Sequence record: MW650886.1
Length of the DNA: 64,000 nt
Reading direction: 5' to 3' (one strand)
Origin: Escherichia phage vB_EcoM-ZQ1
This document shows, piece after piece, positions 1 through 54,758 of this stretch (the stretch's first letter is position 1; each line of letters opens with the position of its first letter). A model generated the notes under the pieces. The model was not told the DNA's origin. It was given only the letters and a program-made list of their open reading frames with translations, and did no database searches. The position numbers and the translations under genes were made by a program.

Positions 1-13
1 TGGGGATTAGTTT

Positions 14-1909
14 TTAATCAGAGAATACTAATCCGATTCGCTCCAGAATAAGGTAGTCAGAGGTGGTGGACGATACAACCTTTATAGCCACTGTAGTAAC
101 TAAATGTGGTGGGTTCGATAAATCTGTAAAAAACCACTCAACATCGCCGCCGCCTACTTTTGTGACAGTAGTATCATACACCCTACCAGATGCGATAGTT
201 GGGTTGAAAGTGAGGGACAGGGTGGCGCTGTTACTTGAACCGTTGTTGTCGGTGAAGGCTGCTATAATCGCCTCCAGACGTACTGGTCGCCCAAAGTTTA
301 TGGTGAATTGCTCCCCTGTCTTAATTCGGATAACTCCTGCTGGGTCATTCCATGTAGCAGTTGATGCAGGGTTTAGCCAGAACACATCCCCTGCGACAAT
401 AGGCTTTGTCTGGTATTTATAGCAGTTAGCGGGCAGGGCGTTAGCCTTTCGGAATAGTGTACGTATCAACTTACAGTCTTTTATTTTACTCTTGCGGATG
501 GCAAGACTTTGTTTCACGAGATTATATATCTGGTCATCGTTTTCCAGAAAGTGCCCATTTTTATCAGCATAGAAAGCCCACATGCCAATCTTAGAAAAGT
601 TTTTACAGATGAAGTTATTAACCGCTGTAATCTGTGCGGATTTTAAAGTTGGGGCCTCGTTCTCATACCAATACGCTGTTAGTAACGGGATGATACGTCC
701 TGCCCTCATCCCCTCCTCCTCCATAGCCGACCACATAGAGGCAGCATATCGACGGATACCAACTGCATCTATGAAATGCGCGTACTGGGATGTAAATACA
801 AAATCAATATCCATATGGAGCGGTAGAGAATCCCAGTTAACTTCTGCGTTACTAGCGGCGTACAGCGGTAGGTTACTAAGTGTTTTCACTTTAGCAATAA
901 TCTCCCCCTGGCGAGTAAGAGGGTATGTAGACAAATTCGGCTCGTCGAATAGGTATAGCCCTACTACAGCGTCATGGTCAAATAAAGAAGACAGCTTAGC
1001 GAAATCTGCATCCAGGTCAGATGAATATGCACCATTTGGCACTGCCTGAAGTATGACGTCGAAACCATACAACTCAGCTAAGTCCAGAAACGCACGGTAT
1101 GTATCAACACCTGCAGTCCAGGTGTAGAACATGAATGTCCCTATCCCTAAGTTACTGGCTTTTTCAAACAGAGTAGGGTCCAAGTCCAACTTAGTCCAAA
1201 CTTCTGAAAAAGCAACAATCCCATCAGAGTTTTTCTGTCGTTTAGGTTCGGAAATAGTGAATCCTTTGCCTGTAGCATCATAAAAAGTGTGTGCATTACC
1301 ACTTCCAGGAGACCCTGTGGTGCCAGTGGCACGATAACTAACCGTTCCATATTTGAACCGCAGGAGGACGCTATTTGTTTTTATCTGCGAGACTTTAGCT
1401 GTGGCAATATTTATAGCTTCGTTGACTGGTTCTCCACCCAATTTTGAACGCAAATCGGGGTCAATTTGAAGCTTCCAGTCACCATTACCCACCGGGTTAG
1501 TCTCTGACGTAATAGTTACAGGTAGAGTTCCTAAGTAGGTGTAACCTATGCCATTATGAAACAGTAACTCATTTCGAGTATTCACCACCAAACCAGTAGC
1601 AAACGAATCAGACAGGCTTACGAACTCTCTACGTGTAGCAGCCAGTTCACCCAAATCAACTGTACCTGCTGAATGTACCAGGATTGCATGTTCGTTCAGA
1701 CTTATCGCAGTCGTTCCTGAAACAATACCTGAAGGAAGAGAATAAGCCCGTTGGGTAGACTCATCATAAATTACTTTAAATCCACTGAGGTCAATACCGA
1801 CAGTGAAATAAACGACTTCGTCTTCTTTGACACCGAAATTTCGAGCGATAGATTGTTTGTTAACTTCTATGGAAGTGGAGCCGCGTGGTTGATTGAATTG
1901 AGAAATCAT
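14..1909 (-). CDS. Tailspike / tail fibre protein with C-terminal putative glycosidase (depolymerase) domain
   Basis: 631-aa ORF; N-terminal ~95 aa module (VKEDEVVYFTVGIDLSGFKVIYDESTQRAY...) is near-identical to an internal module of the adjacent 1050-aa ORF; C-terminal half has TIM-barrel glycoside-hydrolase-like motif (LYLFDEPN); late-promoter-like motif and SD upstream. Confidence 0.55.
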   Translation of the reverse strand: MISQFNQPRGSTSIEVNKQSIARNFGVKEDEVVYFTVGIDLSGFKVIYDESTQRAYSLPSGIVSGTTAISLNEHAILVHSAGTVDLGELAATRREFVSLSDSFATGLVVNTRNELLFHNGIGYTYLGTLPVTITSETNPVGNGDWKLQIDPDLRSKLGGEPVNEAINIATAKVSQIKTNSVLLRFKYGTVSYRATGTTGSPGSGNAHTFYDATGKGFTISEPKRQKNSDGIVAFSEVWTKLDLDPTLFEKASNLGIGTFMFYTWTAGVDTYRAFLDLAELYGFDVILQAVPNGAYSSDLDADFAKLSSLFDHDAVVGLYLFDEPNLSTYPLTRQGEIIAKVKTLSNLPLYAASNAEVNWDSLPLHMDIDFVFTSQYAHFIDAVGIRRYAASMWSAMEEEGMRAGRIIPLLTAYWYENEAPTLKSAQITAVNNFICKNFSKIGMWAFYADKNGHFLENDDQIYNLVKQSLAIRKSKIKDCKLIRTLFRKANALPANCYKYQTKPIVAGDVFWLNPASTATWNDPAGVIRIKTGEQFTINFGRPVRLEAIIAAFTDNNGSSNSATLSLTFNPTIASGRVYDTTVTKVGGGDVEWFFTDLSNPPHLVTTVAIKVVSSTTSDYLILERIGLVFSD

Positions 1910-1938
1910 GATAATACCCCATAAAGGATGACCAATAT

Positions 1939-1949
1939 GGGGTATTTAG
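1939..1949 (-). promoter_or_regulatory. Late-promoter-like motif CTAAATACCCC (minus strand) about 30 nt upstream of tailspike start
   Basis: Minus-strand sequence CTAAATACCCCATATTGGTCATCCTTTATGGGGTATTATCATG; resembles T4-type late promoter TATAAATA; same motif recurs upstream of other late genes. Confidence 0.4.
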
Positions 1950-1987
1950 GCTGAACTAATAAATTTATGAACAAAGGTATAACAAGA

Positions 1988-2012
1988 ACCCCGCCGAAGC
2001 GGGGGTTTTTAT
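1988..2012. terminator. GC-rich hairpin (ACCCCGC-CGAA-GCGGGGGT) with flanking T/A runs, intrinsic terminator between the two tailspike genes
   Basis: Perfect stem-loop followed by TTTTTAT on the plus strand; on the minus strand it immediately follows the stop codon of ORF 2009..5161. Confidence 0.5.
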
Positions 2013-5000
2013 AACTTACCTAGTGCGATAGCGACGTACGGCGACGTTGTATTCCCGACAACGTTATACAGCCCAATCGGCGTTCGGTCTAATGATGGTA
2101 GCCTTGCCCCTGCAACACCACCAACACAGCCCAAAGGTAATGGGGTACTAAAGTTTAAATTAAGACGCTCAAAGATGGAGAAAGCCAGCGTTGGCACTAC
2201 CGGCACCAGTTCAATTATTTGAGGTCTTGTGCTAGCCGGAATGGAAACATTGTAAAACGATGCGAATGTTGTCCCGTCAGCCCTTTTCAATAACGGAGTC
2301 ACCGTCATGCCTGACTCCACTGGACCAATCATCAGGAACAGCCTGGTGATACCTGACAATTCAGTATTAACGCTGAAATACATATTACTGCTACTGGAGG
2401 TAGAGTTCACTCCAGAGAGCGAACCGAAACACGGAGTATCTTTTATGATACTTTGCAACCAATTAGCTTTAAAATTAGTTACCCTTTGTGTTCTGTTTTC
2501 CTGGGAGATAAAGAAATTCTGCCGGTGGATGCTGGTTACAACGTTCTCACCACTTCCGGAGTCTGGGACCTCATCAAACGATATTAACTCGTACACCCCA
2601 TCGGACACTTTCTTAGCCGACGCGTAGCAGCTGAAATAATCACCTTGATACACTATCTGTGATGTACTGAATGTGCTTAGATCGTAGGTAATGGTCAAGC
2701 TTACATTGCTGCGGTACATCGGAGTCACAGGACGTGAAGTAGTACCGGTAATTACCAGTGGGTCATCGAAGTCAGTGTACGCCTCAATTCGCGGGCCAGC
2801 GTACACATAATTGCTAACCAGTATTGACCAGCCGTTCGCCCCGGTTAGGTCATTTGTTTTACAAATAGCGATACCACCTGCGGAGCTACCAGTATTTGCT
2901 CTGATTACAGCAATCATTTGCCCGCGATAGTATCCAAGACAGGTTTCATTAATCAGGCTCCGCCCTGGAAAATCACTTATCTGAAAACTTTTAGTAACTG
3001 ACCATGTAGTACTTGCATTCAGAAGTACATCTGATGAAGTTACAAGCTGAACTTCTGTACCTGTTATACTGTAACGAGAAATAATAAGTTTGCCATCCGG
3101 TGTTGTTAATACGTTACCCCACTGATAATAATCATCCGTTGTTACGATGTCAGATTTGCTTGTAAATGCACCAGAGTTATTGAGATCTACGTACCCTACA
3201 ATAGTTTTTTTATAGGTATCTGCGGCGACGTCATGCAGCGTAAAGGCGATAATTAACTGATTACCTGGGTTGCTAACCGAAATGCTTGGCTCTTTTGCCG
3301 CTATACCCGCAGGTGGCACATATTCCCATATAACAGAAGCACTCCCGTCCTTGAGAATTTCTGCGATGCAGGCACTGTGCTTACCTGTTGCCTGATCGAT
3401 GTGTGCTGGCGATCGACGGAAACATAAAAGATTACGACCATTCCAGAATACGGTGTTACCAAATCCGTCATACTGTACCGTGGTATCTGTGTCTTTTAAT
3501 GACGTGAGGGTTGAAACGGCGGTTTTTAATGATGACATTGATTCTTTGGAAGTCACATCAACTGATGAATCCAATATAGATATTTCGTTATATATTGTAT
3601 CGATATTCTCCTGCACAGTTTTCCCATTACTGGAACCTGTAATCTGGGCACCATTATCTGATAATAAATCACTTCTTAAAGAAGCATCACCAACGCTAAC
3701 CCACGCACCAAGACCAGTACCACCAGATGCTTCAGGGGTTGAGCCAGATGGGACAGTTTTTGGAAACTCCCCTTCCCAGCGGTATTTACCTGTTGTATGG
3801 GTAAGTAATTCATTTTTAACATTAAGTGTAGCACCAGAATCAAATGTCCCGGACAATGTGACGTACTCTTCACGAGATACAGCCAATTCCCCAAGATCTA
3901 CAGAACCCGCTGAATGCACCAGTATAGCGGAAGAACTAAGACTGACAGCAGTAGTACCAGGGACAATATCAGCAGGCAAGGGATAAGCCCTTTGCGTCTC
4001 CTTGTCATAAATAACTTTATACCCACTTAACGCAGCACCAACACTAAAATAAACGACCTCTGTATCTTTAACATTGGCTACACGAGCCACTTCCCGCAAA
4101 GTATAATCAATTTGATTATAGATGTTTGGTGTTCCATTGATAATTACAACAACTTCATCCTCTGGTTCCAGTTCTTGCGCCAGAGTGATTTTACTGGTTA
4201 ATGGATCGAATGTGAATCCCAGATTTTTATACTGGCGACTTCCGTTTATATCAATGGCCGGAACATCATCAACAACGACGTCCAACGTGATTTCGGTTTC
4301 ACCACCAATCGCTGAACCCCCATTATAGACCCAAGTAATCGTAGAAGAACTAGAACCACCGCCATTACCCAATTGAATAGGAGTATATTCAATCACCTGA
4401 AGTTCTGTGTTGGCTGGCAAAGAAGGACTGAAAGTGATTACATTCCCATCTAGTGAATATTTGGATTCCGCAAGACGTTTCCCATCAGCATACACGTCCA
4501 CGATTGTTGGTGGAGTATTGAGAGCGACAGAACTTGTTTCAGACGCCAAAATTTTTGTAAAGATTTCACGACTGTAGACACGACCTTGGCCAAGACCGAC
4601 GCCGGATGTGATAACCCAACCTTGTTCAGGTCCAGACCAAGTGAACGTTGCTGATACGTTATCAGTTGTTATAGCCATGTCTTCAGTGGAGCCATACAAA
4701 TTATTTCCAGAAGGAGACACGGTCAATGGGTAAGTGGCAAATTTCCCATAAGCATCACAAATAGTAACGGAATCCCCAATACGCGTAGGGGAAGGGAGAA
4801 CCACTGTAGATGCCCCTGTGGTATTATTAATGAGATAGCCTCGCCCTTCAGTGAGCGTTGCCGTAGAGGCATGCGGAAGGACTTCCCAGCGGATACCACC
4901 GCCACCCAGCGGCAACCATCCACCATTTTCATAGAAGCCCTCAAATTCGTCGGAGTCGGCATTGTAGCGAACGGAAGACGGGAGTCCTGTGCTGGCATTA

Positions 5001-5161
5001 CCCTCGGGTAAAGTCAGGACAGCATCTGGTCCATGCTCAATCGTACCCGTGTTGAGGAGACCAGCCAAAGTAGACTGCTCTTCAGCCGCCAGACCGAGAG
5101 GGAAAACAGGCTGTGTTGGTTTATTAGCCATTTCAAATACCCCTAAATGTGTTCGTTTCAT
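2009..5161 (-). CDS. Large tailspike protein (about 1040-1050 aa); start probably the second ATG at 5131
   Basis: Long ORF with Gly/Ser/Thr-rich beta-rich composition; shares the ~95-aa module with ORF 14..1909 (residues around 350); first ATG lies inside an inverted repeat and the promoter-like motif, second ATG has SD AGGGG. Confidence 0.55.
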   Translation of the reverse strand: MKRTHLGVFEMANKPTQPVFPLGLAAEEQSTLAGLLNTGTIEHGPDAVLTLPEGNASTGLPSSVRYNADSDEFEGFYENGGWLPLGGGGIRWEVLPHASTATLTEGRGYLINNTTGASTVVLPSPTRIGDSVTICDAYGKFATYPLTVSPSGNNLYGSTEDMAITTDNVSATFTWSGPEQGWVITSGVGLGQGRVYSREIFTKILASETSSVALNTPPTIVDVYADGKRLAESKYSLDGNVITFSPSLPANTELQVIEYTPIQLGNGGGSSSSTITWVYNGGSAIGGETEITLDVVVDDVPAIDINGSRQYKNLGFTFDPLTSKITLAQELEPEDEVVVIINGTPNIYNQIDYTLREVARVANVKDTEVVYFSVGAALSGYKVIYDKETQRAYPLPADIVPGTTAVSLSSSAILVHSAGSVDLGELAVSREEYVTLSGTFDSGATLNVKNELLTHTTGKYRWEGEFPKTVPSGSTPEASGGTGLGAWVSVGDASLRSDLLSDNGAQITGSSNGKTVQENIDTIYNEISILDSSVDVTSKESMSSLKTAVSTLTSLKDTDTTVQYDGFGNTVFWNGRNLLCFRRSPAHIDQATGKHSACIAEILKDGSASVIWEYVPPAGIAAKEPSISVSNPGNQLIIAFTLHDVAADTYKKTIVGYVDLNNSGAFTSKSDIVTTDDYYQWGNVLTTPDGKLIISRYSITGTEVQLVTSSDVLLNASTTWSVTKSFQISDFPGRSLINETCLGYYRGQMIAVIRANTGSSAGGIAICKTNDLTGANGWSILVSNYVYAGPRIEAYTDFDDPLVITGTTSRPVTPMYRSNVSLTITYDLSTFSTSQIVYQGDYFSCYASAKKVSDGVYELISFDEVPDSGSGENVVTSIHRQNFFISQENRTQRVTNFKANWLQSIIKDTPCFGSLSGVNSTSSSSNMYFSVNTELSGITRLFLMIGPVESGMTVTPLLKRADGTTFASFYNVSIPASTRPQIIELVPVVPTLAFSIFERLNLNFSTPLPLGCVGGVAGARLPSLDRTPIGLYNVVGNTTSPYVAIALGKL

Positions 5162-5164
5162 CTA

Positions 5165-5175
5165 GGGGTATTTAG
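5165..5175 (-). promoter_or_regulatory. Late-promoter-like motif CTAAATACCCC (minus strand) at the start of the large tailspike gene
   Basis: Minus strand reads AAATACCCCTAGATGAAACGAACACATTTAGGGGTATTTGAAATG; motif is half of an 11-bp inverted repeat. Confidence 0.4.
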
Positions 5176-13398: not shown

Positions 13399-13468
13399 TC
13401 CGAGATTCTCCTTTTCTATACTCCTGTAGATACACTATGATAAGCCAATGTCTACAGGAGAAAATAGA

Positions 13469-14662
13469 ATGAACAAGACCATCTTCGATATCCTTTCCCT
13501 CGACCGCAACCTGGTCCATTGGGAAGATTATCTCTACAAGCACACCCCGTGCGAACTTGTCGTCAACCACGAAACCAACCAGCAGGTCTGGTTCAAGCGT
13601 GAAGATTATTTTGCGCCGCTGTCCAATTATGCAAATGGCCAGCAGGGCATCAACGGCAGCAAACTCCGCCAGGCCATCTGGTTGATGGTTGAGCACCTCA
13701 AGGCCGGAGGCTCCCCTGACATCATCCATGGTACTGTCGTTGGTAGTCCGCAGTCCCCTATGGCGACGGCAGTCTCTCGGCACTTCGGCGGCAAGACAAC
13801 CACTGTACTCGGAGCGACCAAACCCACCACCTGTATGAACCATGAAATGGTGAAAATGAGCGCCTGGTTCGGTAGTGAGTTCAACTTCGTCGGCTCGGGT
13901 TACAACAGCACGATCCAGCCGCGCTGTAAGAAGTTGATCGAACAACAGAATCCAAAGGCGTATTATCTGGAGTATGGTATCACCCTCGACCATACAACCC
14001 ACTCCCCTGAGCGCATTGCTGGGTTCCATATGCTGGGTGGCGAGCAGGTTGCCAACATTCCTGATCACATTACTGACCTGATCATCCCAGCCGGATCGTG
14101 CAACTCTTGCACAAGCATCCTGACCGGGCTGGCAATGCATCCGAAGCCTAATCTGAAGCGTGTGTATCTGATTGGCATCGGTCCGAACCGCCTGGACTTC
14201 ATTGAGAGCCGTCTGCGCATCATCGGCAAACATGCCAATCTGCCGCACATTGTCGACTTCACCCGTCGTTATCACGACAACCCAGACTATGTACACGGCA
14301 AGAAGGAGCTTCAGCATGCCTCTAAGAGCGTTTCGCTGGCTGGCCTCCTAAGTGGTATCAGGCAGAAGGAAGAGCCAGAGGTCGTGCTTCCTCGCTTTGA
14401 GGTACACCATTGGGATCTTCATACCACTAATTGGGTTCGTTATAATGACCTGATGGAATATCAGTGGGGTGATATTGAGTTGCATCCTCGCTATGAAGGC
14501 AAGGTCATGACCTGGGTTCAGCAACACAAGCCCGAGTTGCTCAACGAGAACACTCTGTTCTGGATTGTGGGCAGCAAGCCGTACATTGAGCCAATGAAGG
14601 CTGCATGTCCTGAACTGGCTATCCCCGAAGCAGTACCTGTGAACGGATTCACCCCTTCCTGA
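13469..14662 (+). CDS. PLP-dependent enzyme, fold type II (ACC deaminase / D-cysteine desulfhydrase / tryptophan synthase beta-like)
   Basis: Motif GINGSKLRQAIWLM...GTVVGSPQSPMATAVSRHFGGKTTTV resembles the GGNKxRKL...QSNHxRxxAAxA signature of the family; start moved to the ATG with SD AGGAGA. Confidence 0.55.
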   Translation: MNKTIFDILSLDRNLVHWEDYLYKHTPCELVVNHETNQQVWFKREDYFAPLSNYANGQQGINGSKLRQAIWLMVEHLKAGGSPDIIHGTVVGSPQSPMATAVSRHFGGKTTTVLGATKPTTCMNHEMVKMSAWFGSEFNFVGSGYNSTIQPRCKKLIEQQNPKAYYLEYGITLDHTTHSPERIAGFHMLGGEQVANIPDHITDLIIPAGSCNSCTSILTGLAMHPKPNLKRVYLIGIGPNRLDFIESRLRIIGKHANLPHIVDFTRRYHDNPDYVHGKKELQHASKSVSLAGLLSGIRQKEEPEVVLPRFEVHHWDLHTTNWVRYNDLMEYQWGDIELHPRYEGKVMTWVQQHKPELLNENTLFWIVGSKPYIEPMKAACPELAIPEAVPVNGFTPS

Positions 14663-14768
14663 CCCTCCTGAATACCCCATACAATCCGTGTGGGGTATCT
14701 ATGAAAACCTTCCTCCAATATTTCCGGAGAGTCGTCCTGTACAAACCAGACCTCGCCAAGCGGGAAGC

Positions 14769-14779
14769 CTAAATACCCC
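14769..14779 (+). promoter_or_regulatory. Late-promoter-like motif CTAAATACCCC upstream of ORF 14809
   Basis: GCCTAAATACCCCCATATGG about 30 nt upstream of SD GAGGAA and ATG 14809. Confidence 0.4.
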
Positions 14780-14808
14780 CATATGGCTAACCCACTGAGG
14801 AACCTAAC

Positions 14809-15267
14809 ATGCCAACCTCCAAATTGTTTGAATCAGAATACACCAATGACATCCCTGTATGGACTGGTGTTCAAGACGGTATCACGATTGAGCTGTTTGA
14901 TCGTGAAGAGACAGGCGCGGAAGAGATCTATGCAGGCGTTGAAGGCACTGATGTTGTCCGCGCCGCCGTAGCACTTGCTACCTTCCTGGAAGATGCGCCG
15001 ATTGATGGCGTGCCGTTCGAGGCGCACGTAGATCCCAAGGATCCGACCTCTATCATCATTACAGTGAATGGGGTGCCATACACTTCGTACAGTATCGAGA
15101 CGGACGAAGAGGGCAGCGGAGCGCTGTATATTGCCACTGACCTGCAGCTGGAAGACGATGAGATGGATTATCTGATTCAGAACGGGGTGCTGCCACCGTT
15201 TACCGATGAAGAACTGGACACGGAACTGGCCGCCGTCGGGGACGACGAAGACTTCTGGGAAGAATAA
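14809..15267 (+). CDS. Acidic hypothetical protein
   Basis: 152-aa ORF, very acidic C-terminus (DEDFWEE); SD GAGGAA. Confidence 0.5.
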   Translation: MPTSKLFESEYTNDIPVWTGVQDGITIELFDREETGAEEIYAGVEGTDVVRAAVALATFLEDAPIDGVPFEAHVDPKDPTSIIITVNGVPYTSYSIETDEEGSGALYIATDLQLEDDEMDYLIQNGVLPPFTDEELDTELAAVGDDEDFWEE

Positions 15268-15271
15268 GAAA

Positions 15272-15297
15272 AGGGGCTTAACGCCCCTTTCTTTATT
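15272..15297. terminator. Bidirectional intrinsic terminator between convergent genes
   Basis: Hairpin AGGGGC-TTAAC-GCCCCT flanked by A-run upstream and TTTCTTTATTT downstream. Confidence 0.6.
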
Positions 15298-16549: not shown

Positions 16550-17140
16550 TTATTTCTTCAGATCAGGCCACGCACCAGAGGTCGCAGTAGACCCAGCTGG
16601 GGGAGCAGACTCAAGATCGGGAGAACCCGACTGAGTAACAACAGTGGGATCTTTCTGTACGACCCGAACCCCAAATTGCTTGAGAGCATCCATAGCTTGG
16701 GCTTTTCGCCTGTTGCTTTTGTAGTGGTTGTAGCCTTTGATACCGAATGATGCACTAATTGCTGTCAATAACGAATAGGTATACCATTCAGGTGCGGTAT
16801 CTAGTGCCTGAAGGCCACCGATTACTGCTTTGATGAAATCCCCTTTATGATACTCACCAGGGAACAGAATCAGTTCCACAACCGGAGCAGTCATGACGAG
16901 GATGGCGGGTATGGCCAACACGATAGTCCAGAATTCGTCTTTCCAAGACCCGCCGACTTCGGTAATCTTAGACAGCTCCCAATCTGAGGAGGACTTGATG
17001 GCCTCCAGCTTGACGTCGTGTTTGGCCTGTACAACTTCCCGCTTATATTGGATCAAATCAGTCCCGAGGTTCCAGAGTTGCTTGAGCACCCCTGGGATCA
17101 TACCAACGAGGGGGATTGCCATAATAAACTCCTTGGTCAA
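16550..17140 (-). CDS. Membrane protein (hypothetical)
   Basis: 196-aa ORF with hydrophobic segments (IPLVGMIPGV; WTIVLAIPAILVMTAPVV); minus-strand terminator hairpin AAGGGGAGGAAACTCCCCTT downstream at about 16531..16550. Confidence 0.45.
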   Translation of the reverse strand: MTKEFIMAIPLVGMIPGVLKQLWNLGTDLIQYKREVVQAKHDVKLEAIKSSSDWELSKITEVGGSWKDEFWTIVLAIPAILVMTAPVVELILFPGEYHKGDFIKAVIGGLQALDTAPEWYTYSLLTAISASFGIKGYNHYKSNRRKAQAMDALKQFGVRVVQKDPTVVTQSGSPDLESAPPAGSTATSGAWPDLKK

Positions 17141-26267: not shown

Positions 26268-26301
26268 TATAAATATCCTCGCCTATAAAGCGAGGATATT
26301 A

Positions 26302-26472
26302 TCATGTTACAAGATCTGTTGGTTTATGCGCTTCCTGGCGCGGTTGTCGGCTTCATCGCTGGTGCTCTGGTCTTCCGTAAACACGCGCAAGATGGTGAAG
26401 TGATTGTTCAGAAGGGTAAGGACATCCTGGAACAAATCGAAGCCAAGCTGGAAGAGCTGAAGAAAAAGTAAT
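26302..26472 (+). CDS. Small single-TM protein (56 aa)
   Basis: MLQDLLVYALPGAVVGFIAGALVFRK... followed by a charged tail; preceded by a hairpin containing TATAAATA. Confidence 0.35.
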
Positions 26473-41211: not shown

Positions 41212-42543
41212 ATGGTTGCCAAGAGCATTACTGTAACGGACTTTGTCAACACTGACCATAAACAGTTTTCTGTGGTCAACAGCATCCGTCAAATCCCTCA
41301 GCTGATTGACAGTCTCAAGCCAAGCCAGCGCAAGATCCTTTTCGCTGCTCTTGAGTACAACAAGGAGGAGATTGTTGACCGCCTTGGTATGTTCGCCGCC
41401 GCTCGGACCAACTACAAGTCTGGTGGGGAGAACATGAGCGGCACTATCGTGAACATGGCCCAGGGGTTCCCAGGTACGAACAACATCCCGTACTTTGACC
41501 GCGATGGCCAGTTTGGTTCTATCATGGGGCGTGATGCTTCATCTGCCCGATACATATCCGTCGCTGTATCTGACGTTATCCGCAAGATCTTCCGCAAGGA
41601 GGATGAGGGTATCTTGGAATACAACTACCTTGGTGAAGAAAGGCTGGAGCCGAAGTTCTTTCTACCCATCCTGCCCATGTTCCTGGTGAATGGGATCAAT
41701 GGTATCGGCACCGGATATTCCACCGACACCCCGTGTCATTGCGTTAAGTCCGTGCTGAATGCCCTGAGAGCGCTTCTCCGTGGCGAAGACCCGAAAGACT
41801 TAAAACCGTACTGGAACGGCTTCAAAGGAGAGACAGGCTATACTGAGGAAGGAAGAGCATACAGTCGCGGCATCTTCCGTCGCGTCAATGCCACCACCCT
41901 GCATATCACCGAAGTCCCAGTGGGCTGGTTTGCCAAAACCTATGAGACCAAGGTGTTGCTGCCTCTGTACAAGGCAGGTATCCTCACCGAGTACGCCAAC
42001 GACACGACGGAAGATGGCTGGGATATCACGGTTGTGTTTAAGCGCGGCGAACTCTCTAAGCTGAGTGACGAGCAGGTTGAGCAGATGTTCAAACTGTATT
42101 CAGCTACCAAGCCTGTGTGGACAGCATGGGATGAAGACGGTGTTATTCATCGTTATTCTGGTTGGCGGGACATGTTGCTACCGTTCTTCAATTATCGCCT
42201 ATCACGGTACGAAGACCGTCGCCAGTATCTGTTGAAGGACATGGCAGACAGGATCCGCAAGCTGGGTGACCGGGCGGTGTTCATTGAATGGGCGACGCGT
42301 GTTGATCTCCGCCAAAAGATTGACGTGCTGAAGTCTCTGTTCATGCAGGACTACCCGGACTTTGGTGGTGATCTTGACGAGTTGTTCAAGATGCCTCTGT
42401 CGTCTATTACTCTGGACGCCCGTGAGCGCCTACTCAAGCAGATTGAGAACCTTGAAGCACAACATAAGGAATTAAGTAAGAAAGAGGACATCGATCTTTA
42501 CACTGAAGACCTTGATGACCTTGAAAAGGCTCTTGGCCTATAA
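41212..42543 (+). CDS. DNA topoisomerase II medium subunit (GyrA-like; T4 gp52 equivalent)
   Basis: Directly follows the large subunit; GyrA/ParC-like N-terminal breakage-reunion region; start placed at the ATG after the upstream stop. Confidence 0.7.
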   Translation: MVAKSITVTDFVNTDHKQFSVVNSIRQIPQLIDSLKPSQRKILFAALEYNKEEIVDRLGMFAAARTNYKSGGENMSGTIVNMAQGFPGTNNIPYFDRDGQFGSIMGRDASSARYISVAVSDVIRKIFRKEDEGILEYNYLGEERLEPKFFLPILPMFLVNGINGIGTGYSTDTPCHCVKSVLNALRALLRGEDPKDLKPYWNGFKGETGYTEEGRAYSRGIFRRVNATTLHITEVPVGWFAKTYETKVLLPLYKAGILTEYANDTTEDGWDITVVFKRGELSKLSDEQVEQMFKLYSATKPVWTAWDEDGVIHRYSGWRDMLLPFFNYRLSRYEDRRQYLLKDMADRIRKLGDRAVFIEWATRVDLRQKIDVLKSLFMQDYPDFGGDLDELFKMPLSSITLDARERLLKQIENLEAQHKELSKKEDIDLYTEDLDDLEKALGL

Positions 42544-49179: not shown

Positions 49180-49186
49180 CTAAATA
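49180..49186 (+). promoter_or_regulatory. Late-promoter-like CTAAATA motif upstream of structural gene 49221
   Basis: TCCTAAATAGCTATAAC about 35 nt upstream of the ATG. Confidence 0.35.
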
Positions 49187-49220
49187 GCTATAACACTCTA
49201 TCTATTTAAGGGCTGAGACC

Positions 49221-54098: not shown

Positions 54099-54758
54099 TC
54101 AGACTCCGTGGGCTTGTATTAGCTCACGGAGTCTCTGTTTTGAATATGTGGTATCCTCATCCGGAACCACAGCATTCGTCTTCCTGAGCAAGAACGCCTC
54201 TGAGTTCCAGTAGATGTCATCACGCAGAATCGTATCGTATAGATGAATGAAACCAACGATCTTGTTCAGACCGACAAGGAACCAAATCGGGAACTTCTTG
54301 ATGATGATGTCTGTCAGCAACGGTGGATGACCTGTACCCGTCCCCTTGATGTACTCAATGAAGGTGCAGTTGCGCTCCCTTATGGCAGGGATCATCTCCC
54401 GCTCGAACTCCTCAAGGAAGTTATATGTAAAGTTCTCGTACAGCTTACGGTATTCATCATAATTGGCCTGAGCCTGGCGTGTAAGCAATGTCGTCACCCA
54501 GGTCTTGGGTGATTTGATGAAGTTGGCAATGATGTAGTTCTCTACCACTTCACCCTGTGATGACTCGAACCGACGGGCAAGGCGAGCAAACTGTTTGCAC
54601 ACGGCCTCCTTCGCCAAGAACGTCTCGAACTTGTAATTCATCGGTCCATACAAGCTGTAATCGAAGTCCTTAGTGGTGAAGTGCAGCTTGATCGCCATGA
54701 AGACACAGTAAACGTTGAACGCCCGCTCGAACTCCATCTTCTGCCACTCTGTTAGCAT
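54099..54758 (-). CDS. Hypothetical protein
   Basis: 219-aa ORF. Confidence 0.45.
   Translation of the reverse strand: MLTEWQKMEFERAFNVYCVFMAIKLHFTTKDFDYSLYGPMNYKFETFLAKEAVCKQFARLARRFESSQGEVVENYIIANFIKSPKTWVTTLLTRQAQANYDEYRKLYENFTYNFLEEFEREMIPAIRERNCTFIEYIKGTGTGHPPLLTDIIIKKFPIWFLVGLNKIVGFIHLYDTILRDDIYWNSEAFLLRKTNAVVPDEDTTYSKQRLRELIQAHGV
54101..54141 (+). terminator. Intrinsic terminator after the late block
   Basis: 10-bp stem AGACTCCGTG / CACGGAGTCT followed by CTGTTTTG; overlaps the 3' end of the convergent minus-strand ORF. Confidence 0.55.

Follow-up and report, generated by a model that had tools for sequence, protein, structure and literature searches.

The DNA analysed here is a 64,000-nucleotide stretch of Escherichia phage vB_EcoM-ZQ1 (record MW650886.1), referred to over its full length as the window, and the subject of this work is the short region between positions 14,663 and 14,808, which carries two copies of an element containing ATACCCC. 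This region follows a gene for a pyridoxal phosphate (PLP)-dependent enzyme resembling threonine ammonia-lyase (13448-14662, plus strand, stop codon TGA at 14660-14662) and precedes an open reading frame (ORF) that starts at 14809 on the same strand. The first copy forms part of a hairpin next to a degenerate late-promoter motif (P1), while the second belongs to an exact late-promoter motif (P2). The PLP-enzyme product matched phrog_3650 (E=1e-237) and, just under the curated cut-off, the Pfam family PALP (E=8e-8). The window shares 88-96% identity with phages of the genus Agtrevirus and other Aglimvirinae within the Ackermannviridae (ViI-like phages), including Escherichia phages YX22 and PC3, Salmonella phages SKML-39 and P46FS4, Shigella phage AG3 and Dickeya phage LIMEstone1.

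The junction between the PLP-enzyme gene and ORF 14809

On the 3' side of the PLP-enzyme stop codon, the sequence reads CTGAATACCCCATAC-AATCC-GTGTGGGGTAT (14668-14698), followed by CT and an ATG at 14701. The RNA of the plus strand folds into a hairpin at 14672-14698, beginning 10 nt past the stop codon and composed of a 5' arm ATACCCCATAC (14672-14682), a 5-nt loop AATCC (14683-14687) and a 3' arm GTGTGGGGTAT (14688-14698). A preliminary description of this DNA had placed a hairpin here with a stem of 8 pairs; the location was correct, and the stem proved to contain 11 pairs, of which five are G-C and one is a U.G wobble (T14680.G14690). Within a 61-nt context the predicted fold reaches -17.8 kcal/mol (z = -4.63), a value equalled in none of 200 shuffles. 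The 5' arm overlaps the -10 element of P1 and its CCCC at -5 to -2. Inside the 3' arm, and therefore within the stable stem, lies a Shine-Dalgarno (SD) sequence, GGGGU (14692-14696), located 4 nt ahead of the ATG at 14701, which itself stands 2 nt past the stem. This GGGGU can pair with the anti-SD through four Watson-Crick pairs and one wobble.

The gene to which this ribosome-binding site (RBS) belongs is recognizable in relatives. In LIMEstone1 and four further genomes (L005, L006, L007 and L009), a full gene of 152 aa is located between the PLP-enzyme gene and the homologue of ORF 14809. It begins with ATGAAAACCTT, 2-3 nt past the hairpin, and ends with ...REA-TAA, the TAA falling within the next CTAAATACCCC. 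The encoded protein (LIMEstone1 ORF173, L010:2191-2649) contains the Pfam domain ART-PolyVal, an ADP-ribosyltransferase (ART) domain, with E=5e-12, above the curated cut-off, and is recorded as a structural (virion) protein confirmed by mass spectrometry (MS). As a side observation, the ART encoded by ORF173 may be packaged and would then recall T4 Alt in its function; the CBA120 paper describes ViI-like phages as having no Alt or ModA homologues.

In the window and in 10 other aligned genomes, only a remnant of about 70 nt occupies this position. Here the remnant extends over 14701-14772 on the plus strand (72 nt, 23 codons and a stop), with the first ~7 and the last ~13 codons joined and the TAA stop embedded in P2. 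Among the genomes it differs by a 1-nt frameshift straight after the ATG, by more single-base indels and by deletions of 10-13 nt, and 28 of its 71 alignment columns are variable. These frameshifts and indels identify 14701-14772 as a pseudogene remnant evolving without coding constraint, and its interpretation as a real small gene was rejected on this ground. The alignment indicates that this phage has lost the virion ART gene by an internal deletion. Across the relatives, the gene is found in full, as a remnant, or is cleanly absent.

The P1 motif, CTGAATACCCC (14668-14678, plus strand), starts 5 nt after the end of the PLP-enzyme gene, and no terminator was called between the two. Its core is not intact, reading CTGAATA with G14670 in place of A (TAAATA to TGAATA). 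At the orthologous position, TAAATA is kept in all five relatives with the full ART gene and in 8 of the 11 remnant-bearing genomes, where the 5' arm reads CTAAATACCCC; the altered forms are CTGAATACCCC in the window and in PC3, and CTGAACACCCC in YX22 (core TGAACA). The -10 core of P1 is mutated in this sublineage, and the P1 of this phage is probably inactive. The LIMEstone1 record labels the orthologous site a putative late promoter. With CTAAATA at -12 to -6 and CCCC at -5 to -2, the geometry of such promoters would place the P1 start at about 14680-14681, a prediction for a motif whose -10 is mutated here.

The second copy was found exactly where the preliminary description had put it, as CTAAATACCCCCATATGG at 14769-14786. 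It contains P2 (14769-14780, plus strand; CTAAATACCCCC), an exact motif match in which CTAAATA (14769-14775, TAAATA core 14770-14775) is followed by CCCCC. The ATG of ORF 14809 follows P2 at a distance of 29 nt, and P2 is present in every relative examined. Its C run comprises five Cs in the window, YX22 and LHE287 and four in the other relatives, so that the distance from the -10 to the predicted start varies by 1 nt. By T4/Aeh1 geometry, this start would be at about A14781. ORF 14809-15267 (plus strand) encodes an acidic protein of 152 aa (phrog_3852) and has its SD, GAGGAA, at 14797-14802. The product is homologous to LIMEstone1 ORF174 (96% identity by tblastn), recorded as 'confirmed structural protein' (MS), and the LIMEstone1 site orthologous to P2 is annotated 'putative late promoter'. 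The earlier identification of the second copy as a late promoter is borne out by this annotation, and P2 is most probably the late promoter from which the virion-protein gene ORF 14809 is expressed. The unit is closed by a canonical bidirectional intrinsic terminator at 15270-15290 (both strands), called in the terminator scan and annotated at the same place in LIMEstone1.

Both motifs belong to a promoter class that is common in these phages. In the window and in LIMEstone1, TAAATA occurs 25-45 nt upstream of the start codons of many virion genes, and the LIMEstone1 record contains 33 annotated late promoters of this type, including both sites orthologous to P1 and P2. Adriaenssens et al. in 2012 reportedly gave CTAAATAcCcc as a 'Viunalikevirus' consensus; a literature search on the motif itself returned nothing relevant. 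The T4 late promoter is TATAAATA at -13 to -6, and in Aeh1 the corresponding CTAAATA starts at -12 (Nolan 2006). Relatives of this phage encode counterparts of gp55, gp33 and gp45, the late-transcription proteins of T4; these homologues are annotated in the LIMEstone1 record and have been reported from CBA120 and AG3. The preliminary description had further proposed that both copies form one sequence family and share one recognition factor. In relatives, both do read CTAAATACCCC, and RNA polymerase carrying the phage gp55 late sigma is plausibly the single factor that recognizes them. Upstream of the PLP-enzyme gene, no TAAATA is present on the same strand between 4008 and 14770, which leaves this gene with no late promoter of this type to drive it.

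A recurring hairpin cassette and its covariation

ATACCCC was found above the level of shuffled sequence in the window, with 15 occurrences against 4.4 +/- 2.3 expected and none of 100 shuffles reaching 15. Seven of the 15 are accounted for by three hairpins (1914/1939, 5137/5165 and 14672/14692) together with the second copy, and for the remaining eight an excess over chance is not clear. The exact 11-mer CTAAATACCCC is present at three sites, at 1939-1949 and 5165-5175 on the minus strand and at 14769-14779 on the plus strand; the hairpin copy at P1, CTGAATACCCC, differs from it by one mismatch. A chance origin of the repeated palindrome was rejected.

IMG/VR was scanned with the pattern CTAAATACCCC-N5-30-GGGGTAT, in which only the outer ATACCCC/GGGGTAT is demanded. 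Ackermannviridae genomes of ~155 kb contain 3-5 copies each, grouped into seven orthologous families (A-G), and the ATG always follows 2-7 nt after the 3' arm. In the window, cassette D (1909-1949, minus strand; CTAAATACCCCATA ... TATGGGGTAT; -20.5 kcal/mol, z -4.3) precedes the ATG at 1909 of a tailspike-like gene of 631 aa, and cassette B (5131-5175, minus strand; CTAAATACCCCTAGATG ... CATTTAGGGGTAT; -22.2 kcal/mol, z -7.3) precedes the ATG at 5131 of a tailspike-like gene of 1040 aa. In LIMEstone1, families B and C stand before ORF160 and ORF159, both annotated 'putative tailspike protein', and family E before the structural ORF129.

The stem-only alignment of these elements (25 distinct elements in 7 families) shows that the inner 3-5 pairs vary by family and yet remain complementary, as in CATAC/GTGTG, CTAG/CTAG, CATA/TATG, CCAT/ATGG, CAATG/CATTG and CTAATG/CATTAG. 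Four inner pairs show compensatory changes (34 cells), and 92% of the cells are paired. The covariation score of 0.272 exceeds that of shuffled alignments (0.079; reached in 0 of 500 shuffles), while slid controls scored low. These changes show selection on the stem as an RNA structure. Within family A, the stem is invariant except for one U.G to U-A change, and the loops read AATCC, AGTAA, AGCAA, GACCA, AACCA and AACCC; loop length across the cassettes ranges from 5 to about 17 nt. Additionally, G.U pairs are found only on the sense strand, and of the two strands the sense strand gives the more stable fold (-22.2 against -16.5 kcal/mol in B, -20.5 against -18.1 kcal/mol in D).

Pairing between a late promoter and the SD of its own gene is also stronger than pairing with permuted partners (3.93 vs 2.35 +/- 0.42; 1 of 5000 permutations reaches it), and on one measure it lies ~3-fold above that of non-late genes. 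What is proposed is a conserved subset of late genes with such pairing, not a property of all late promoters. No such pairing is predicted for ORF 14809 in this genome, where in a fold of 14640-14830 its SD pairs with no upstream sequence.

The same arrangement has also been reached with other sequences. A contig related to this phage (IMGVR_UViG_2974574446_000001, hereafter L008) lacks the ART gene and the ATACCCC hairpin and keeps the PLP-enzyme gene. At L008:1440-1500, a 15-bp stem, GGTTCTCAGTGTGG...CCACACTGAGGATC, encloses P2; the 5' arm of this stem lies ahead of P2, and the 3' arm covers GAGGA, the SD of the ORF 14809 homologue. The predicted folding energy is -26.7 kcal/mol (z -4.4), and no structure is predicted for the late RNA. 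From this comparison, the same problem appears to have been solved independently at this junction in L008. The LIMEstone1 late promoter of UvsW likewise pairs with its own SD.

Further elements of related design were noted outside the junction. In the window, an analogous hairpin at 26268-26306 (plus strand; TATAAATATCCTCGC-CTATAAA-GCGAGGATAT-TATC-ATG, ATG at 26304; -18.1 kcal/mol, z -5.3) pairs a -10 flank with the SD GAGGA of a 55-aa protein with a single transmembrane segment (phrog_3879), possibly related to lysis. In LIMEstone1, the late promoters of the endolysin gene ORF070 (54247-54282, minus strand; L132) and of the RuvC gene ORF056 (41989-42020, minus strand; L011) pair with their own SDs in the hairpins TAAATACCTTCGCA...TGCGGAGGTAT and TAAATACCCATAAC...GTTATGGGTATTT, respectively. 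RuvC is the functional counterpart of T4 gene 49, which is controlled likewise. A gp48-like baseplate gene and its divergently oriented neighbour are separated by a palindrome at 49181-49214 (both strands; 16682-16709 in LIMEstone1), which consists of two exact TAAATA motifs, one on each strand and 27 nt from each other, and the complement of each promoter lies in the leader of the other gene, near the SD.

The 1040-aa and 631-aa genes (window 1-5131, minus strand) share an internal motif, …EVVYF(S/T)VG…LSG(Y/F)KVIYD(K/E)(E/S)TQRAY…, and the pair resembles the multiple-tailspike cluster of ViI-like phages, with an own CTAAATACCCC hairpin for each gene and a terminator at 1989-2004 between them. 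This terminator is canonical and bidirectional, and cassette D is located ~40 nt downstream of it. The combination CTAAATACCCC...GGGGTAT-ATG was also observed ahead of genes for SegE-type GIY-YIG, NUMOD3-containing and PD-(D/E)XK endonucleases on unrelated, non-Ackermannviridae IMG/VR contigs (L088, L103, L032, L046, L070 and L081). This distribution suggests that such cassettes occur widely among phages whose late promoters read CTAAATA.

A proposed late-only translation lock and the alternatives

We consider it rather probable that both copies are gp55-type late promoters and that the first is the relic of a lock that hid the SD of the lost virion ART gene. In the proposed mechanism, the CCCC of P1 (-5 to -2) and 3-5 further bases would pair with the SD GGGGU of the ART gene. 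RNA reading through from the PLP-enzyme gene, which we infer to be transcribed early, would hold both arms, and the resulting hairpin (-17 to -22 kcal/mol) would hide the RBS. RNA initiated at the late promoter would have its 5' end past the CCCC and, without the 5' arm, would be translatable. Here, with the locked gene deleted and the -10 mutated, the hairpin would be left as a relic of the lock.

The folds agree with this scheme, as the RNA from the predicted P1 start is essentially unstructured (-3.4 kcal/mol, z +1.0) compared with the read-through RNA (-17.8 kcal/mol, z -4.6). A full gene behind the hairpin, absent here apart from the 72-nt remnant, is present in LIMEstone1, L005-L007 and L009. 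The occurrence of the cassette at endonuclease genes is counted as support for the lock, since the best-documented cases of this control, in T4 and Aeh1, concern genes of that class.

Several observations weigh against this reading. The CCCC of P2 has no GGGG partner, so the C run does not serve only as an anti-SD sequence. A comparison of RNAduplex energies between late promoters and non-late genes gave no overall shift (Mann-Whitney p=0.30), and the enrichment of the strong tail is modest, with 4 of 25 late against 5 of 131 non-late genes at -12 kcal/mol or lower (p=0.037). The probability that the SD is unpaired was uninformative when read-through and late RNAs were compared, as accessibility in the late RNAs is not uniformly high and background pairing is high even for P2. 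In this 64-kb window, which covers another part of the genome, tblastn gave no match to gp55, gp33 or gp45, and the searchable literature yielded no mapped transcript 5' or 3' ends for any Ackermannviridae phage. Furthermore, a pure relic should decay, and yet the stem has stayed conserved in the 11 genomes with the remnant, which suggests that it still has some function.

This last point leads to the principal alternative, in which the hairpin acts now, or has always additionally acted, as a terminator-like, attenuating or 3'-stabilising element for the PLP-enzyme transcript and insulates the late virion gene. The position of the hairpin directly after the stop codon fits such a role, as does the record of Klebsiella phage Menlow, where the same hairpin is marked as a terminator. 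The stem has been kept after the loss of the gene, with 1 of 22 columns variable against 28 of 71 in the remnant (Fisher p=0.0014, 11 remnant genomes), a count that is suggestive rather than decisive because the genomes are related, and it is conserved even where the -10 is mutated. Some paralogous copies are also followed by U-rich spacers, such as UAUUUUCUU. However, the 3' flank of the hairpin itself, CUAUGAAAACC, contains no U-tract, and the terminator scan that called 15270-15290 and 1989-2004 did not call the hairpin at 14672 or cassettes B and D. Copy D, lying 40 nt past a canonical terminator, is not needed there as one, and L008 ends its PLP-enzyme gene without such a hairpin. In every copy, moreover, the SD is placed in the 3' arm and the ATG 2-7 nt beyond it, and a terminator needs neither. 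We regard this alternative as unlikely. The preliminary description had called the first copy terminator-like; a terminator in its own right is not supported, given the missing U-tract, the negative scan and the identity of this copy in relatives as promoter and SD of a 152-aa gene, and a residual role of this kind is possible.

A combination of the two ideas can be put forward tentatively. The element CTAAATACCCC...GGGGTAT may be a modular lock reused at tailspike, virion-ART and homing-endonuclease genes, which in this phage may have outlived both its gene and its -10 through exaptation as an insulator or 3'-end element without a U-tract, situated between early DNA-modification genes and late virion genes.

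A further explanation treats the palindrome as a site in the DNA, either an operator for a dimeric protein or a cruciform or non-template hairpin that aids promoter opening. The inverted repeat does overlap the promoter, and ATACCCC/GGGGTAT is invariant among the copies, but the -10 flank and the SD suffice to account for this invariance. Between families, the inner stem differs in sequence with its pairing kept, the loop varies as described above, and the G.U pairs favour a structure on the sense strand. The 3' arm, at +8 to +18, would also lie beyond the initiation bubble. We therefore consider a DNA-level site very improbable. That the arms are a divergent pair of late promoters is scarcely credible and was rejected for 14672, for although the window does hold one such palindrome, at 49181/49208, with two exact TAAATA motifs driving divergent genes, the reverse arm here (ATAGATACCCC) has the core TAGATA rather than TAAATA, those of B and D read CAAATA and TAATAC, and the upstream side is occupied by the plus-strand PLP-enzyme gene, leaving no divergent gene to drive.

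Implications and relation to known systems

The observation made at this junction is real and largely explained, and it represents a known kind of control rather than a new terminator-promoter system. A conspicuous palindrome of the Ackermannviridae is accounted for, and its public annotation is inconsistent, being divided between late promoter and terminator. One orthologous hairpin carries both labels, 'terminator' in Menlow (L134:716-746, with the RBS of the next gene in the 3' arm) and 'putative late promoter' in LIMEstone1 (L010:2157-2162). At this locus, a decayed gene and a probably inactive promoter were identified. More broadly, the results suggest that late-only translation of the T4 kind is used systematically in the therapeutically relevant Ackermannviridae, for tailspikes and the virion ART as well as for the endolysin and resolvase of LIMEstone1. 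The mechanism is known from T4, and its stereotyped, repeated use in the Ackermannviridae appears to be undescribed in the accessible literature. In practical terms, these findings allow better annotation of promoters, RBSs and terminators, and they offer a ready-made late-only expression cassette for phage engineering.

Rho-independent terminators share with the hairpin at 14672 a stable, GC-containing stem-loop straight after a stop codon. They differ from it in the U-tract, which is missing here, and the stem described here holds the SD of the next gene and the -10 flank of a promoter and is missing from L008, where the PLP-enzyme gene is retained. A second comparison concerns the PeSL (promoter early stem-loop) cassettes of T4-type phages, reportedly described by Arbiol et al. 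in 2010 as an early sigma-70 promoter with a terminator stem-loop. They resemble the present cassette in being short, repeated modules of promoter and stem-loop between genes that may promote recombination or deletion, whereas here the promoter is late and the stem-loop lies over the RBS. The deletion in the ART gene is internal to the ORF and not between two promoter copies, and a role of the cassette in this deletion is not supported.

The promoters themselves are close to those of T4, sharing a short, -10-only (C)TAAATA motif ahead of virion genes and, in relatives, the gp55, gp33 and gp45 proteins. In contrast to T4, about half of the sites have C instead of T/A at -12, as in Aeh1, a subset carries CCCC at -5 to -2, and the start sites are predicted rather than mapped.

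The closest known systems are the translational locks of T4 and Aeh1. In T4 gene e, the longer early transcripts fold and lysozyme synthesis from them is ~100-fold lower, while the late transcripts lack the 5' strand of the structure, and I-TevI is under the same control (Uzan & Miller 2010, PMC3014915). The same control applies to soc, 25/26, I-TevII, I-TevIII, segB and Aeh1 mobE (Edgell et al. 2010, PMC2988022). All of these genes, e and I-TevI included, share with the present element a late promoter at the 5' arm and an SD in the 3' arm, and they are late genes located downstream of earlier genes on the same strand, a relation that for the PLP-enzyme gene depends on its presumed timing. T4 gene e is mirrored by the endolysin hairpin of LIMEstone1. 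The Ackermannviridae differ in using a stereotyped cassette, CTAAATACCCC...GGGGTAT, in 3-5 copies per genome and mainly at tailspike and virion-ART genes, with the unusual SD GGGGU. In this phage the locked gene has been lost, and the lock, as opposed to those of T4 and Aeh1, is a prediction from sequence.

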